Below, one piece after another: positions 3,600-15,251 of a DNA stretch of 19,938 nucleotides. Position 1 is the stretch's first letter; each line of letters starts with the position of its first letter. The translations under genes were made by a program, and so were the position numbers. The stretch comes from a virus. Taxonomy: Duplodnaviria > Heunggongvirae > Uroviricota > Caudoviricetes. The DNA lies in the IMG/VR virus record IMGVR_UViG_2737471861_000023; one strand, written 5' to 3'. A model generated the notes under the pieces. That model searched no databases. It was not told the origin of the DNA and saw only the letters and a program-made list of their open reading frames with translations.

Positions 3600-4088
3600 T
3601 TAAAACCGTTCCAGAGTGCATACCATCGCATCGGCGGGTAGTTTTTCCGTGAAGTCGACCTGACCGTGTTTATCGAAGTGGATCAGTAATGCGCATCCAT
3701 CATTTTGGGTTGGGGTGTTTTGTGCTGCTGGTGGTTGTTTTTGGCTGAAATAACAGTCTTCCAGTTTTTCGAACACTTCCCACGCCTGATCGGTTTCCAG
3801 CATTTTGGCGTGACGGGCTGCTCCGCGTTCTGTCCAGAGGATGAGGTGCTTTGTACGCGGTGCAACTAAGTTACTTTGAGTAACCTTGTTCTTAAATTCC
3901 CGCAACTCAGCCCCTTCCAATTTGAAGTAGTGTTTCCCACAAACAAAACGCTCGGCATTGCGTGTATAGTTCACTTTGATGTTATTAGTTTCGGTGCCAT
4001 AAAGTTGTGCCAAAAGCTCGGTAGTAATGACAGGGATTTGGTTATGGGTGATCGGGGAAAGAGTTTCAACTGAGATTTGAATAGCCAT
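3600..4088 (-). CDS. ORF6N-domain protein, 162 aa (antirepressor-like N-terminal DNA-binding domain; function unknown)
   Basis: ATG at 4088 with AAGGA SD; N-terminal region fits the ORF6N pattern as recalled (FV..KHYF.LEG.EL..F ... LWTERGA.RHAKML..D.AWEVFE.LE..YF). Confidence 0.65.
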   Translation of the reverse strand: MAIQISVETLSPITHNQIPVITTELLAQLYGTETNNIKVNYTRNAERFVCGKHYFKLEGAELREFKNKVTQSNLVAPRTKHLILWTERGAARHAKMLETDQAWEVFEKLEDCYFSQKQPPAAQNTPTQNDGCALLIHFDKHGQVDFTEKLPADAMVCTLERF

Positions 4089-4269
4089 AGGATGATCCTT
4101 TTTCTATGTGAATCATCACCACTGCTGACGCCAATCAGTATGGTGGTGAACTGTGCAGGGTTGGCGTAACCGGGAAAAAGGAACCGGCGCGGATCGCTCC
4201 GCCCCCACACAGCCCACCATTGAGATGTGACAGTGCAAACGACAATAAAAAAGACGCTGGCGCGTGAGG

Positions 4270-4299
4270 AATATAGCCCCGGACAATGTGTCTGGTCAA
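4270..4299 (-). promoter_or_regulatory. Candidate late promoter (pR'-like) just downstream of Q: -35 TTGACC, 18-nt spacer, -10 TATATT on the minus strand
   Basis: Hexamers read from sequence (plus ggtcaa 4294..4299, aatata 4270..4275); followed by a short GC hairpin plus T6 at about 4245..4262. Confidence 0.35.
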
Positions 4300-4303
4300 G
4301 CTC

Positions 4304-4690
4304 CTACATGATTCGTTCTACGTATCTGTCCATCTCCAGTCGGATATCAAGCATCATCAACATGCCATCAATAACCCCTTCCGCTTTCTGCAGGCGCTTG
4401 CCAATACAGGTATCCGAACACCCATGCTTTCGTGCCAACCCCATAAAAGTCATTCCACCTACGTAATAATCCACCAACAAATCGTGCAAATCCTGATTTT
4501 TCTTGTTCAACCGGGCCATACAGCCACAAATTATCATTGCATCATCATCAGAACACTGAGGGCGTGATTTCACTTTCGGCGGGATTAATCCTTTAAAACC
4601 AGCAGCGATTGACGCCCATGACACATCTTCGTGATTGTTCGCAGCCCATGCTCCCCACCGCTCCATAACCTGCTGAATATCACGCACCAT
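4304..4690 (-). CDS. Late-gene antitermination protein Q (phage-82/QuuD-type), 128 aa
   Basis: Translation [34 protein letters not shown]... closely resembles DLP12 QuuD as recalled; start codon overlaps the rusA 3' end. Confidence 0.8.
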
Positions 4691-5051
4691 CGTTATCACC
4701 TGTAATTTCGTAAATCTTCACGCCCAACCGCCCACCAGGAACAGGCAGTCCGCGCACAATATTGATTTCATCAAACTGCTCGTCGTCTATAAGTAGTCCG
4801 GCATGCGTCAGCGCATCCAGTGGTGCCTTCAGGATATTGTCCAGGTCGCGGCGGCGCTTATCCGGTGGCTCTGCAATAATTTTTATTGCCAGCCTTCCGG
4901 ACAGGTTTAATTTCAGTCGCTGCTGGCGAACAATAAGCGCCACATCACGGCGATAACGCTCACCGGCTTTTGATACAAAATATGTGCTGCCACGACGTCG
5001 CCAGTAGGTGTTCACCGTTGGCGGGTAAGGCAAAACAAATTCTATCCCCAT
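4680..5051 (-). CDS. rusA: Holliday-junction resolvase RusA, 123 aa
   Basis: RusA-family signature ([12 protein letters not shown]...[29 protein letters not shown]) recognised by recall; conserved position upstream of Q. Confidence 0.85.
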
Positions 5052-5063
5052 CAGTAACCTCTT

Positions 5064-6113
5064 TTATCCGAGTACGCCTGTTGCAAAGGCGTGATCAAGA
5101 AAACGAAAAATTAAATCAACCTGAGAACCATGCTTTTCTTCGAATGCCTGCGGATCCGCATGAAGCTCGTTGTGATGCTCCCGACACAGCGGCAACGTAA
5201 AAATATCGTGGGCCTTTGTTCCCATCCCTCCCTGACCGTGACCAATCAGGTGATGGGGATCGTCGGCTGGCTTACCACAACACGCACACGGCTGTGTCTT
5301 CACCCAGCGTGTGTATTTCTCGTTAACCCAGCGGCGACGTTTAGGTCGTTTCATGAAAGATTCCGGAGACTCAGGATCAACGGCAATGCTGACCACCGTC
5401 TTTTCCTGTGGTGGGTTCTGTTGCTGGTGGGCGTGAGGCAACAGCGCAAAATTTTTTGTGCGCTGCTTCAGTATGCTGGTGGCTGTCTGTTCTCCCGGTA
5501 TGATGTCGCTCTCGCGGTAAAGCGAGCGGATTTTCTCCGCCGGTAATCCCAGTGAGCGGCGTAATACAGCCTCCGGTAGTGCGTCCGCTACCTGATTGCA
5601 GACCGCCCACCAGGATAATTCAGCCAGAGATAATTCACGCTCCTGCGTACCGCTTATTGCGTGACCGATGACGTCAATCATCCATGCTGACAGGTTTTGA
5701 TGAGCAAGTTGCTCGAGTGATTCGGATGTCTGGTCACGCAGCTGGTTGTCGCAGTGCCAGCACAACACCATTGCGCCGGTACCATAACGGTGAATGACGG
5801 TTTCACTGTGGTGATAATCGCCGTGTGGCCACTGGCAGGATTTAACATGGCGCAGTAACCAGTCAGACAATGCGCCAGCGCCACCAGCAGCACGAATCAC
5901 TCGTTCGTCGCTGAAAAATGGCAGTAATGATTTATCCTCCGCCAGCGGCTGGCGAACGGCAGGAACGACCCCGGACGGCAGATTACGCATGCTTTTCGGT
6001 TCCGGCTCCACCAGTACCCGGGTATTGTGGAATACCGGCATGGATTCACGGCCCGGCTTAACGATCACCAGCCCGAGTTCCGGTACCAGAACAGGTCGAA
6101 GTAATACCCGCAC
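5064..6113 (-). CDS. DUF968-family prophage protein (YdfU-like), 349 aa, GTG start
   Basis: Length and N-terminus (MRVLLRPVLVPELG...) match my recollection of Qin YdfU; Cys/His-rich C-terminal motif (CACCGKPADDPHHL...CREHHNELH); GGAGG SD 5 nt before the GTG. Confidence 0.7.
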   Translation of the reverse strand: MRVLLRPVLVPELGLVIVKPGRESMPVFHNTRVLVEPEPKSMRNLPSGVVPAVRQPLAEDKSLLPFFSDERVIRAAGGAGALSDWLLRHVKSCQWPHGDYHHSETVIHRYGTGAMVLCWHCDNQLRDQTSESLEQLAHQNLSAWMIDVIGHAISGTQERELSLAELSWWAVCNQVADALPEAVLRRSLGLPAEKIRSLYRESDIIPGEQTATSILKQRTKNFALLPHAHQQQNPPQEKTVVSIAVDPESPESFMKRPKRRRWVNEKYTRWVKTQPCACCGKPADDPHHLIGHGQGGMGTKAHDIFTLPLCREHHNELHADPQAFEEKHGSQVDLIFRFLDHAFATGVLG

Positions 6114-7224: not shown

Positions 7225-7380
7225 TTACTCCTCAGGTTCGTAAGCTGTGAAGACAGCGACCTCCGTCTGGCCGGTTCGGATTCGTACCTCGCAGAGGTCT
7301 TTCCTCGTTACCAGTGCCGTCACAATGACGGTTAAACAGATGACGATCAGGGCGATTAACATCGCCTTTTGCTGCTTCAT
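7225..7380 (-). CDS. hokD: Hok-family type I toxin, 51 aa (HokD/RelF-like)
   Basis: Translation MKQQKAMLIALIVICLTVIVTALVTRKDLCEVRIRTGQTEVAVFTAYEPEE matches HokD/RelF as recalled. Confidence 0.9.
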   Translation of the reverse strand: MKQQKAMLIALIVICLTVIVTALVTRKDLCEVRIRTGQTEVAVFTAYEPEE

Positions 7381-7560
7381 AGCCTGCTTCTCCTTGCCTT
7401 TCGGCACGTAAGAGGCTAACCTAGATTTGCCGTTCATAGATTGAGCCTCAGATTAATGTTAAGCGTCTTGCAGGACGCGTAATGTTAACTGGGGCTTTTC
7501 TCTATCTGCCTTTGGTGTTCATGCCTGAGGCAGATAGCCTCAATCACCCGCAGCAATTCT
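7381..7560 (-). promoter_or_regulatory. hok mRNA leader: in-frame 19-codon upstream extension (mok-like, ATG at 7437 with GAGG SD), 9-bp inverted repeat 7502..7510/7529..7537; Sok antisense not confidently placed
   Basis: ORF track 7225..7437 is in frame with hok; inverted repeat read from sequence. Confidence 0.4.
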
Positions 7561-12940: not shown

Positions 12941-12958
12941 TGTTTTAAAATCAAAACA
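12941..12958. promoter_or_regulatory. Operator-like palindrome TGTTTT-aaaatc-AAAACA overlapping the repressor start codon
   Basis: Inverted repeat read from sequence; same architecture repeated at 13663..13680; ATCAAAAC also at 12904..12911. Confidence 0.4.
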
Positions 12959-13596
12959 TGAGCAAGCAAACAATATCTGAACGCATAACCCAACGTATGC
13001 ATGCGCTAAACCTGAAAGGCAAAGACCTTGTCAATGCCACTGGCGCATCAAAAGGCTCCGTAAGTCAATGGATGAACGGTGGAGGAGCGCCGTCCTCGCG
13101 TTACATAAGTTCACTGGCAAAGATATTGAAAGTAAACGAAAATTGGCTTCTTAATGGAGGAGAGTTAAATACAGGTGATTCGCTTGATCTATCTTTACCG
13201 CCGATAAAAACGGTTCCGCTACTATCACTTCAGCAGGCAGCAAGCTGGAGTGATTATATGAAAAATTCCTCAATAACCTCTTGTGTGCAGCTTGTCGGAG
13301 AAATCCCGGCCAATACCTTTGCAGTTGTTCTAGAGAGTGACAGTATGTCAACATCTGGTGGGGGAGTTTCCATCCCAAATGGTTCAACAGTTTTTGTTGA
13401 TCCCGATCGAACCGTACAACCAGGAAATATTGTCCTTGCCTTACCCAAAGGGACCACAACACCTGTCATTCGTAAACTGGAGATAGAAGGGCCGGATATT
13501 CTTTTAGTCCCCACGAATCCTCGCTACCCTTCAATTATGCTGGATGATCTATCTTGCATATTGGGCGTATGCTTTAAAATTCAACAAGATATTTAA
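12958..13596 (+). CDS. CI-like prophage repressor: N-terminal XRE-type HTH plus C-terminal S24 (LexA-like) peptidase domain, 212 aa
   Basis: HTH segment (LVNATGASKGSVSQWMNGG) and S24-like C-terminus with Ser (VLESDSM) and Lys (VIRKL); divergent arrangement with the Cro-like gene. Confidence 0.85.
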   Translation: MSKQTISERITQRMHALNLKGKDLVNATGASKGSVSQWMNGGGAPSSRYISSLAKILKVNENWLLNGGELNTGDSLDLSLPPIKTVPLLSLQQAASWSDYMKNSSITSCVQLVGEIPANTFAVVLESDSMSTSGGGVSIPNGSTVFVDPDRTVQPGNIVLALPKGTTTPVIRKLEIEGPDILLVPTNPRYPSIMLDDLSCILGVCFKIQQDI

Positions 13597-13680: not shown

Positions 13681-13709
13681 TTGACCTGAAAAGTTCATTT
13701 TTCTAAACT
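13681..13709 (+). promoter_or_regulatory. Candidate sigma-70 promoter for the ydfA-dicF-dicB operon (pL-like): -35 TTGACC, 17-nt spacer, -10 TAAACT
   Basis: Hexamers read from sequence at 13681..13686 and 13704..13709. Confidence 0.4.
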
Positions 13710-14174: not shown

Positions 14175-14185
14175 CGGGGTTAAAG

Positions 14186-14344
14186 ATGGAATTTAAAGAT
14201 TTACCTCCAGACACTCAGAAAATCGCCGCAGAAACACTGAAATCTCTCATTTTGAACGGGGAGACAGAAAAGGTAGATCCAGCTAAAAAACTGGCTCAAG
14301 AAATCAGAGAAGCCTTTATTGCTCTTTATCAGTCTTCTCCATAG
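14186..14344 (+). CDS. Hypothetical small protein, 52 aa (MEFKDLPPDTQKIAAETLKSLILNGETEKVDPAKKLAQEIREAFIALYQSSP)
   Basis: Hand-translated ORF 11 nt after ydfB; weak SD; overlaps a convergent minus-strand ORF by 29 nt. Confidence 0.4.
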   Translation: MEFKDLPPDTQKIAAETLKSLILNGETEKVDPAKKLAQEIREAFIALYQSSP

Positions 14345-14501
14345 CGGCTTGTTTTTCTTCTTTTAATATATTGCGGATTGTAATAACTGAATTAGCCGCC
14401 TCTGAAGGGGATGACATTTTGCCAGCCCGAATTAACTCAACTGTTAAGTTCAAAGCTGCAACAGATGGATAGGTAAATGGGTTAATTAACTTGTCTGACA
14501 T
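14316..14501 (-). CDS. Hypothetical small protein, 61 aa (MSDKLINPFTYPSVAALNLTVELIRAGKMSSPSEAANSVITIRNILKEEKQAAMEKTDKEQ), convergent and antisense within the dic operon
   Basis: ATG at 14501 preceded by GGAGG with 5-nt spacer; no family recognised. Confidence 0.4.
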   Translation of the reverse strand: MSDKLINPFTYPSVAALNLTVELIRAGKMSSPSEAANSVITIRNILKEEKQAAMEKTDKEQ

Positions 14502-14832
14502 TTTATCCTCCATTGAGGTTCTGGGTTAAAAATGGAGACCAACATGCTGCCACATGTGGTCGTGCGCCGGACACGGATAAGAATCCGGCACTGACAGTTT
14601 ACTGAAAGGATATATCCCTGAAAAGTCAGGGCATAACGCGAAAGCGCACGGCGAAGTTCGTCTCACTGTACGGTGTCGTTAAATTTAATTCGACCGTGCG
14701 CTTCCGGTTGTGGCACTCCGCGAAATGGCGCGGCGGTACGTATGGCGGGGTTATTCCTTCCCCCTGTTGAGGACACCGGGTTGTCAGGTTGACCATACGC
14801 CTGAGTGACAACCCCGCTGCAACAACCCATGT

Positions 14833-14885
14833 TGATTACCTTTTGGCGGCATCAGTTTCATTGCTGGCTGATGTCCGTCCTTTTT
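14833..14885 (+). ncRNA. dicF: DicF-like antisense sRNA (ftsZ-targeting family) ending in an intrinsic terminator
   Basis: TTTGGCGGCATCAGTTT... and the downstream CTTTTTAAAGTGAATTTTGTGATG.GGTGAATGCGGCT.AGCGCACGCGGAACAG block resemble K-12 DicF and its 3' flank as recalled; stem GGCGGCATCAG/CTGATG(t)CCGTCC followed by T5; exact 5' end uncertain. Confidence 0.55.
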
Positions 14886-15068
14886 AAAGTGAATTTTGTG
14901 ATGCGGTGAATGCGGCTCAGCGCACGCGGAACAGTTAAAAAGGCCAGTTGACTTCCGTATTGGTTCTTATGGGTGGGTTCTCTGTATCCGGCGTTAATTG
15001 TTAACTAGTTAACGTCACCTGGAGGCACCAGGCACCGCATCACAAAATTCATTGTTGAGGACGCGATA

Positions 15069-15251
15069 ATGGAAACGTTATTACCAAACGTCAATACGTC
15101 TGAAGGTTGTTTTGAAATTGGTGTCAGAATCAGTAACCCTGTATTTACTGAAGATGCCATTAATAAGAGAAAACACGAACGGGAGCTATTAAATCAAATA
15201 TGCATTGTTTCAATGCTGGCCCGTTTACGCCTGATGCAAAAAGGACGCTGA
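15069..15251 (+). CDS. dicB: Cell-division inhibitor DicB, 60 aa
   Basis: Translation METLLPNVNTSEGCFEIGVRISNPVFTEDAINKRKHERELLNQICIVSMLARLRLMQKGR closely matches DicB as recalled. Confidence 0.9.
   Translation: METLLPNVNTSEGCFEIGVRISNPVFTEDAINKRKHERELLNQICIVSMLARLRLMQKGR

Follow-up and report, generated by a model that had tools for sequence, protein, structure and literature searches.

The 19,938-nucleotide (nt) stretch of viral DNA analyzed here (the window; IMG/VR record IMGVR_UViG_2737471861_000023, Caudoviricetes) raises the question of what lies between the last small genes of its early operon and a DicF-like small RNA, a segment in which no credible open reading frame (ORF) is found. 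DicF was among the first bacterial small RNAs described. A preliminary description of the locus, made from the sequence alone, proposed for this segment a processed precursor RNA or an unrecognized structured RNA, and the follow-up gave grounds for both. According to the best explanation, which we consider probable when all its parts are graded jointly, the region ~14560-14886 is the non-coding, untranslated and processed leader of a dicBF-type operon and contains a constrained RNA domain, called module C below. The coordinates of the features are collected in Table 1.

The leader and its structured domain

Relatives of module C were collected by a distant search in deposited phages, in which 14718-14816 was matched, followed by pattern scans; the resulting set comprised 105 distinct sequences falling into 32 clusters at 96% identity. 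The structure was drawn from a reading of the alignment together with RNAalifold, and the covariance model hit the window at 14704..14839 with 145.8 bits (E=3e-45). Judged from this comparison of sequences, module C is an evolutionarily constrained domain in which a predicted outer stem (P1) closes a junction of three helices. Among 40 distinct rows, 96.0% of cells were paired versus 34-56% when the partners were slid, changes on both sides were found in 18 pairs versus 3-6 after sliding, and none of 500 shuffles reached the observed values; all these counts were made on a model-fitted alignment biased toward the structure, which weighs against taking them at face value.

The two inverted repeats named in the preliminary description are exact (GCGCACGG at 14645-14652 with CCGTGCGC at 14694-14701, and GGGTTGTCA at 14778-14786 with TGACAACCC at 14806-14814), and the comparative alignment proposed there showed that their helices keep pairing through compensatory changes in dozens of relatives. 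The GGGTTGTCA hairpin is helix H3 of module C. Compensatory versions were found for H3 (GGGUAACCA/UGGUUACCC, GAGCUACCA/UGGUAGCUC, and GGAUCACCA/UGGUGAUCC), H2 (CAGGUG/CACCUG, CUGGGGC/GCUCCAG, and CGAGG/CCUCG), H1 (CCGCA/UGCGG), and P2 (GGC/GCC in phage P7), and H2 folds in nearly all of its 57 distinct versions. Almost no variation is seen in the loops and junction strands (GAAAUGG, CGGUAAGUAUGGC, CACC, and CAGGUUGACCAUACGCCUGAG), an invariance imposed in part by the search patterns. A pseudoknot between the H3 loop and a strand enclosed by P2 is probable. Of the six pairs, a single one is variable (U-A, C-G, or U-G, with no mismatch; GCAUGG/CCAUGC in phage P1), and such thin support counts against this element. 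The supported nested fold has an energy of -38.2 kcal/mol and the pseudoknot adds about -9.8, which is comparable to the minimum free energy (MFE) of -46.7. The MFE helix GGCGGGGUU/AACCCCGCU was rejected in favor of H2 plus H3 because it showed no covariation, its pairing (78%) being equal to the shuffle mean. G·U cells numbered 84 and A·C cells 12, an excess which indicates that the folded RNA is the transcribed plus strand.

The proposed covariance search gave no family match: nothing in Rfam 15 was hit over 14560-14830 at E<=10, or over the phage P1 and F1055 copies at E<=1, the families covered including C4/IsrK, EAR, riboswitches, self-cleaving ribozymes, 5S, and tRNA-like RNAs. With its strong covariation and no Rfam 15 family, the 117-nt domain answers to the suggested unrecognized structured RNA. 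Single-sequence folding of 14500-14890 (+) lay weakly above chance (z=-2.9; 2 of 100 shuffles as good) and the minus strand of the same region folded at z=-5.8; hence folding energy alone decides nothing.

The possibility that the stretch encodes a protein, in the ORF 14626..14811 or in 14663..14830 on the minus strand, has next to no credence left. In its favor, hypothetical proteins are annotated on the minus strand across the domain in cdtI (gp40, L006 2545-3000) and F1055 (F1055_0036, L007 2284-2856), both probably miscalls, and the 55-amino-acid (aa) ORF has a weak partial PHROG match (E=1.7e-5, 22 residues). Against it, a 2-nt indel relative to K-12 breaks the frame and the H2 segment varies from 26 to 32 nt in ordinary relatives, with an insertion in one (52 nt), so that every frame is broken; substitutions track base pairing and not codon structure, the G·U and A·C counts favor the plus strand, and the domain is unannotated in 3747 E. 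coli genomes. The 61-aa ORF 14626..14811 has no family match and had rightly been suspected to be spurious.

The G+C content reaches 0.55-0.57 over 14650-14875 versus 0.37-0.49 on the flanks. The stretch first delimited as GC-rich and structured began at ~14515 and ended at 14830; the rise and the structure were confirmed within it, while its first ~45 nt (14515 to ~14560) belong to the small-ORF cassette described below. From ~14560 to dicB the window shows ~90% column identity to the ydfC-dicF-dicB untranslated region of K-12, and it aligns to phage Tritos at a similar level (~90%), with long invariant runs at 14560-14830 and 14886-15075. In the alignment to K-12, conservation is higher in the leader upstream of DicF than in DicF. 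The first leader hairpin region (14546-14602; 2501-2557 in L008) also occurs between unrelated early-left genes in the Stx phages P13374, TL-2011c, and phi191, and looks like a small mobile element of intergenic DNA.

Table 1. Predicted features of the leader and its surroundings (window coordinates)
Feature	Position	Strand	Sequence, evidence or remark
LexA/cI-type repressor gene	12958..13596	+	Upstream of the operon
Promoter-like site	13681-13709		3' of the repressor gene
52-aa ORF	14186..14344	+	Last early-left gene before the untranslated leader; ORF list, PGAP, PHROG
61-aa ORF	14316..14501	-	ATG 5 nt after a GGAGG Shine–Dalgarno sequence; antisense to the operon
Leader start with two predicted hairpins	14562..14631	+	GCCGGA (14566-71)/UCCGGC (14584-89) and CCCUGA (14616-21)/UCAGGG (14626-31); near-identical or identical in K-12 Qin and Tritos
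Helix B, ~22-bp long-range stem	14632..14712 (5' arm 14632-14655, 3' arm 14689-14712)	+	CAUAACGCGAAAGCGCACGGCGAA and UUCGACCGUGCGCUUCCGGUUGUG; duplex table
Module C, 117-nt RNA domain	14707..14823	+	Covariation, covariance model
P1, outer stem	14707-14714/14816-14823	+	GUUGUGGC/GCUGCAAC
H1	14718-14722/14729-14733	+	CCGCG-AAAUGG-CGCGG
P2	14735-14737/14775-14777	+	GGU/ACC
H2	14747-14750/14761-14764	+	GGGG/CCCC
H3	14778-14786/14806-14814, plus GG 14787-88/CC 14800-01	+	GGGUUGUCA/UGACAACCC
Probable pseudoknot, six pairs	14740-14745/14793-14798 (H3 loop)	+	GUAUGG/CCAUAC
DicF-like small RNA	14830..14886	+	RF00039, 28.6 bits, E=0.001 (14830-14880), below the gathering score of 48
Intrinsic terminator	Stem 14846-14856/14869-14881, U-run 14882-14886	+	Terminator scan
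dicB (PF05358)	15069..15251		Family match

The processing of the homologous RNA has been published, and with ~90% identity to that K-12 ydfC-dicF region the precursor suggested initially finds its counterpart. In K-12, Northern blots revealed both a terminated 1,146-nt transcript and a read-through transcript of 1,608 nt (PMC10448788). A 190-nt DicF species with an RNase III-dependent 5' end accumulates in the stationary phase and rises upon RNase E inactivation (PMC10448788), the 53-nt DicF is made by RNase E (PMC10448788; Northern and primer extension also in PMC5069750), and RNase III makes a 72-nt 3' variant (PMC5069750; PMC9438474). The leader as the DicF precursor is already known in K-12. 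In the DicF papers the region figures as a long untranslated region or as a 3' untranslated region, and the 137 nt upstream of DicF are given no role (PMC10448788; PMC5069750; PMC9438474).

The core of helix B is the repeat GCGCACGG/CCGUGCGC. The duplex is kept in 44 distinct arm pairs, with energies of -22 to -42 kcal/mol, around inserts of 18-119 nt, and its covarying sequence types include AAGCGCACGGCGA/UCGACCGUGCGCUU, CACAGCG/CGUCUGUG, GAGAGCAUUG/CAGUGCUCUC, and UAAGAGCAUUCC/GGAAUGCUCUUU. The support for this stem is the table of duplexes, since the two registers seen when 30 joined arm pairs were aligned would make a pair count on a fixed structure wrong. Counting 190 nt back from the 3' end of K-12 DicF leads to the 3' arm of helix B, around CUUCCG. 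As in the K-12 DicF precursor, a stem would thus stand at the RNase III-made 5' end of the 190-nt species, with the cut position deduced from size, and helix B is the putative RNase III substrate.

Helix B ends with the six bases GUUGUG (14707-14712), which are also the 5' strand of stem P1, and this common segment makes the two pairings mutually exclusive. In L081, the 5' strand of P1 carries an inserted GCUGU (GUUGCGUGCUGU), matched by ACAGC in the downstream strand (ACAGCGCAAC) and not by the upstream arm, which shows that both helices are real and that P1 is distinct from helix B. Helix B is absent from phage P1.

Long-range stems of a similar kind (ACACAAC..AAGAGCA with UGCUCUU..GUUGUGG) recur 3' of the domain or terminator and bracket other inserts (L007 ~2690-2800; L081 5127-5255), which suggests serial RNase III-type processing cassettes in these phage leaders. 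In leaders of the F1055 and Erwinia type, the insert of helix B carries a T-loop-like motif, GGTTCGATTCC or GGTTCAATTCC (L007 2400-2440; L236 4440-4470). A tRNA-like element was considered on account of the GGTTCGATTCC motif and dropped, as ARAGORN called neither a tRNA nor a tmRNA in F1055 and Erwinia.

The DicF of the window is, by its covariance score, a divergent DicF-like variant, remaining under the RF00039 gathering score; relative to K-12 dicF, 10 nt are missing from its 5' end and the loop differs. This variant also turned up in several viral contigs, and its targets may differ. Between the DicF terminator and dicB lies a second conserved structured element (14888-15053, +), with a partial STnc100 match (RF02076) of 33 bits, below the gathering score of 47. 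It is closed by the stem 14890-14909/15033-15052, whose 5' arm would include the published RNase III-made 3' end of the 72-nt DicF.

Distribution of module C and its surroundings

Module C is present in 3747 of the 5426 complete E. coli genomes (~69%); a genome may hold as many as 8 copies, and no feature is annotated at their positions. Pattern scans found it in more than 200 viral contigs and in 16 species-representative genomes, those of Escherichia coli, E. albertii, E. ruysiae, Shigella, Citrobacter, Trabulsiella, Erwinia tracheiphila, and Izhakiella. The deposited phages matching 14718-14816 were P1/P7, cdtI, Ayreon, 2H10, Stx2c phages, and Salmonella F1055. In every characterized context the domain lies inside a phage transcription unit. 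The cdtI-like, Stx2c, Salmonella F1055, and Erwinia prophages carry it as the first element downstream of cI, and in cdtI, Stx2c, and F1055 it stands ~350-950 nt past the repressor gene with no N-like gene between them. The copy in the ban-operon leader of P1/P7 is annotated as "dicF-like region" in NC_005856; there, the domain starts ~30 nt after the -10 hexamer of P1ban and is followed by GCCCAUCUUCGGGUGGGCGUUUUUU.

A terminator-like hairpin with a U-run occurs within ~120 nt downstream of the domain in 132 of 136 distinct contexts. Most of these terminators are of the DicF type and the one in P1/P7 is unrelated (GCCCA/UGGGC). In F1055 and Erwinia, the domain is followed by a long covarying stem, GUCGGCGUC/GACGCCGAC or GGCGGUACC/GGUACCGCC. 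On the strength of these sequence contexts, module C is regarded as a mobile module independent of DicF.

Two decayed copies, on the minus strands of Shigella flexneri L227 (1432-1590) and of viral contig L179 (5199-5357), have lost the 5' strand of P1 and part of H1, by rearrangement upstream of ACGCGAAAUG. In L081, helix B and the domain share an ORF-free stretch with another long stem, and this stretch lies ~1.7 kb upstream of a Phage_holin_8 gene.

The operon and its convergent small-ORF cassette

Judged from gene content, the locus is the early-left (dicBF-type) operon of a Qin-like lambdoid prophage. Behind the promoter-like site follow ydfA (DUF1391, PF07151), ydfB, the 52-aa ORF, the ORF-free stretch, the DicF-like RNA, dicB, and a DUF1482 gene. 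This is the order of a dicBF operon (repressor, ydfA, ydfB, a leader with dicF, dicB, and ydfD), except that ydfC is swapped for another cassette; K-12 Qin has the same gene order, but with ydfC at the place of the two small ORFs of the window. A prophage copy in E. coli EC11 is 99.6% identical and is annotated in the same way. Neither the ORF list nor the family matches revealed an N-like ORF between the repressor gene and module C in the window. In the rightward part of the prophage, Rfam recognized a C4 antisense RNA (4139-4224, -, 74 bits) and a sok antitoxin RNA (7375-7549, -, 101.6 bits), both above the gathering threshold.

The coordinates first given for the two small ORFs, a plus-strand ORF of 52 codons and a minus-strand ORF of 61 codons with a GGAGG Shine–Dalgarno sequence, and for their 29-nt tail-to-tail overlap (14316..14344), proved exact. 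The antisense placement of the second ORF is real and conserved in relatives; an alternative start at 14513 would give a 65-aa version. Both are hypothetical proteins of PGAP in the EC11 prophage. For the 52-aa protein the PHROG match is phrog_9419 (E=5.8e-21), for the 61-aa protein phrog_17494 (E=1.1e-7). When 1.84 billion representatives were searched with phmmer, the latter had ~60-aa homologues with 46-67% identity and an invariant core, AALxLTxELIRAGKI. One homologue (P0014) is likewise antisense, between a Peptidase_S24 (cI) repressor gene and rdgC; another (P0017, 46% identical) is opposed by a 57-aa protein homologous to the 52-aa one (38% identity, E=5e-10). This second pair lies on metagenome contig L240 (96-426), in the same convergent arrangement and with an identical 29-nt overlap. 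The overlap, unchanged in so distant a contig, itself seems to be constrained.

Because of the PHROG matches and the conservation of the cassette at 38-46% amino-acid identity, the conservation check proposed at the outset came out in favor of both small ORFs: they are genuine and form a convergent two-gene cassette of predicted proteins. Homology to K-12 breaks off after ydfB (~14174) and returns at ~14560, so 14175-14560 represents a mosaic cassette replacing ydfC. The 52-aa ORF was considered as a YdfC homologue and rejected, having no similarity to K-12 YdfC. Searches of Pfam and of defense systems (PADLOC) returned no match for either protein, and tblastn of the 61-aa protein against deposited phages gave none. 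The cassette is rare, being matched in 10 of 5426 complete E. coli genomes, and it is not linked to module C, the P0014 locus (L239) lacking the domain.

Possible functions of module C

As in the ~90%-identical locus of K-12, the repressor-controlled promoter would drive transcription via ydfA, ydfB, and the 52-aa gene into the leader. Helix B would form first during transcription, and RNase III would cut it, removing the 5' arm and making the 5' end of the 190-nt DicF precursor. The GUUGUG segment freed by this cleavage would allow stem P1 to close the junction, resulting in a 190-nt RNA with a base-paired 5' end. RNase E would then free the short DicF, whose 3' end lies at the intrinsic terminator (14846-14886). 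By analogy with HK022 put and Bacillus EAR, the folded domain may act in cis on the transcription complex or the nascent RNA and control the downstream terminator. In phages without an N gene, it would favor transcription past the terminator into dicB, the recombination genes, and int, and the terminated or processed product would be the DicF-type small RNA. Cis control of the adjacent terminator is the reading that we tentatively favor, ahead of a scaffold role that is nearly as likely. With terminator-controlling riboswitches or attenuators, module C shares a conserved multi-helix domain followed by an intrinsic terminator. A broader proposal, for which we hold rather low expectations, makes the domain an RNA-only (or host-factor-only) class of processive antiterminators or terminator controls, found in N-less lambdoid prophages of Enterobacterales and in the phage P1 ban operon, with DicF-type RNAs as terminated by-products and RNase III as the trigger.

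Several points weigh against this account. The antitermination step is deduced from position only, and the RNase III site was placed by the 190-nt count from K-12 and not mapped in the window. Exactly one copy of module C is found per locus, and none in the rightward operon or elsewhere in the window. No covarying alternative pairing of an antiterminator and a terminator was seen across the nine lineages inspected, no systematic search having been made. In L060 and L081 no terminator follows the domain, another long-range stem coming directly after it, and the L081 copy is not repressor-adjacent but lies upstream of a holin gene, within 1.86 kb (3964-5825) free of ORFs. The domain model (R1) missed HK022 putL and putR (L009) and HK639 putL (L238) at E<=1, and homology to put was rejected on this ground. 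Complementarity between the domain and the terminator is limited to a trivial GGCGG/CCGCC. A Nus-type antitermination through boxA was likewise considered and set aside: the exact core TGCTCTTTA occurs at 14320-14328 (+), inside the 29-nt ORF overlap and before the untranslated stretch, the window has 11 matches versus 8.3 expected at one mismatch, and the strict YGCUCUUUA core is present in only 10 of 208 related contexts.

A different role, somewhat unlikely when taken by itself, would be that of a stability or processing scaffold, in which the closed 5' structure shields the 190-nt RNA from 5'-end-dependent RNase E and from exonucleases, and so sets the amount and timing of DicF-type maturation with no effect on transcription. 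Such a scaffold would agree with a 190-nt species that starts a few nt before P1, builds up in the stationary phase, and rises when RNase E is inactive; the exclusivity of helix B and P1 fits a folding coupled to maturation, and the domain plus the terminator hairpin makes an RNA of ~180-190 nt both in Qin-type loci and from Pban of phage P1. A generic shield, however, would not require loops and junctions to stay nearly constant from Erwinia and Salmonella to E. coli and phage P1 while the stems drift, and the domain is kept also where the hairpin behind it is unlike DicF (phage P1) or is absent (L060 and L081). Another reading is an attenuator of the sensor type, riboswitch-like or protein-binding, in which a protein of the host or phage, or else a small molecule, would bind the junction and pseudoknot and so decide between DicF termination and read-through. 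The size, the multi-helix junction, the tertiary pairing of a loop with an internal strand, and the conserved unpaired nucleotides are aptamer-like, and an intrinsic terminator comes next in 132 of the 136 contexts. We nevertheless find a sensor improbable: no conserved alternative pairing of P1 with the terminator was seen in the nine lineages inspected, the spacer between the domain and the terminator ranges from ~8 to more than 60 nt and differs in sequence between lineages, and the phage P1, Qin-type, and cdtI-type loci have no common ligand-related gene context.

We give slightly less credit still to an RNA acting in trans, whereby the 137-nt 5' part or the whole 190-nt RNA would be a regulator, e.g., a protein sponge or a base-pairing RNA using the H3 loop. 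The almost complete invariance of this loop (CAGGUUGACCAUACGCCUGAG) in all relatives and the stability of the long form as a cellular species are in line with it, but loop invariance was partly built in by the search patterns, six nt of the loop are complementary to GUAUGG within the domain with the single variable pair covarying, and no target or partner is known.

Among known systems, the closest is the DicF precursor of K-12 Qin (Faubladier et al. 1990; Ragunathan et al. 2023), with the same operon position, RNase III stem, and 117-nt domain, to which the copy in the window is orthologous; it differs in that ydfC is replaced by the two-ORF cassette and in that the DicF of the window scores below the threshold and lacks the first ~10 nt. 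The put elements of HK022 and HK639 are RNA-only processive antiterminators, whose suppression of termination in cis needs no protein factor and is abolished by mutations in the rpoC zinc-binding domain. They resemble module C as cis elements located upstream of terminators in a repressor-controlled early operon of N-less lambdoid phages, and module C is promoter-near in phage P1. Short motifs are common to both by eye, with homology not demonstrated (GAACGGCGCG; GCGCGGCGG...GGGUU..CAGG(A/U)UGA; ACCAUGCG(U/C)C), but put has ~70 nt and two stem-loops versus 117 nt and four helices around a junction. The relation to put is one of analogy. The EAR of Bacillales, as the 2010 work of Irnov and Winkler is said to have described it, is a pseudoknotted RNA of ~120 nt within an operon, upstream of intrinsic terminators that need read-through. 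It belongs to another host clade, has another fold, and shows no sequence or Rfam match to module C, so that this likeness too is an analogy only. Helix B and the stem 14890-14909/15033-15052 are long-range ~20-bp duplexes bracketing structured RNAs of a polycistronic transcript, like the RNase III stems of the lambda N-leader and sib, T7 R1-R5, and the 16S/23S flanks, and both coincide with published RNase III-dependent ends of DicF. In contrast to the known stems, the 3' arm of helix B overlaps the closing stem of the next domain, so that cleavage may switch the fold.

In the literature searched, which did not extend to the 1994 survey of Faubladier and Bouché and the P1 genome paper, no published account of the conserved fold or of its presence in phage P1, Salmonella, and Erwinia was found. 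The covariation-supported 117-nt domain and its wide, DicF-independent spread appear to be undescribed in Rfam 15 and in that literature. The domain merits an RNA family model, and several phage records annotate spurious proteins over it. The 137 nt before DicF, so far treated as an inert precursor, form, by this analysis, a domain under strong structural selection. If module C does control the terminator, this would account for long early-left expression without N in the Qin/Rac-like and the cdtI/Stx2c-like phages, and for the gating of the toxic dicB and DicF products. Acting only as a scaffold, it would still provide phages with a reusable module for making small RNAs.

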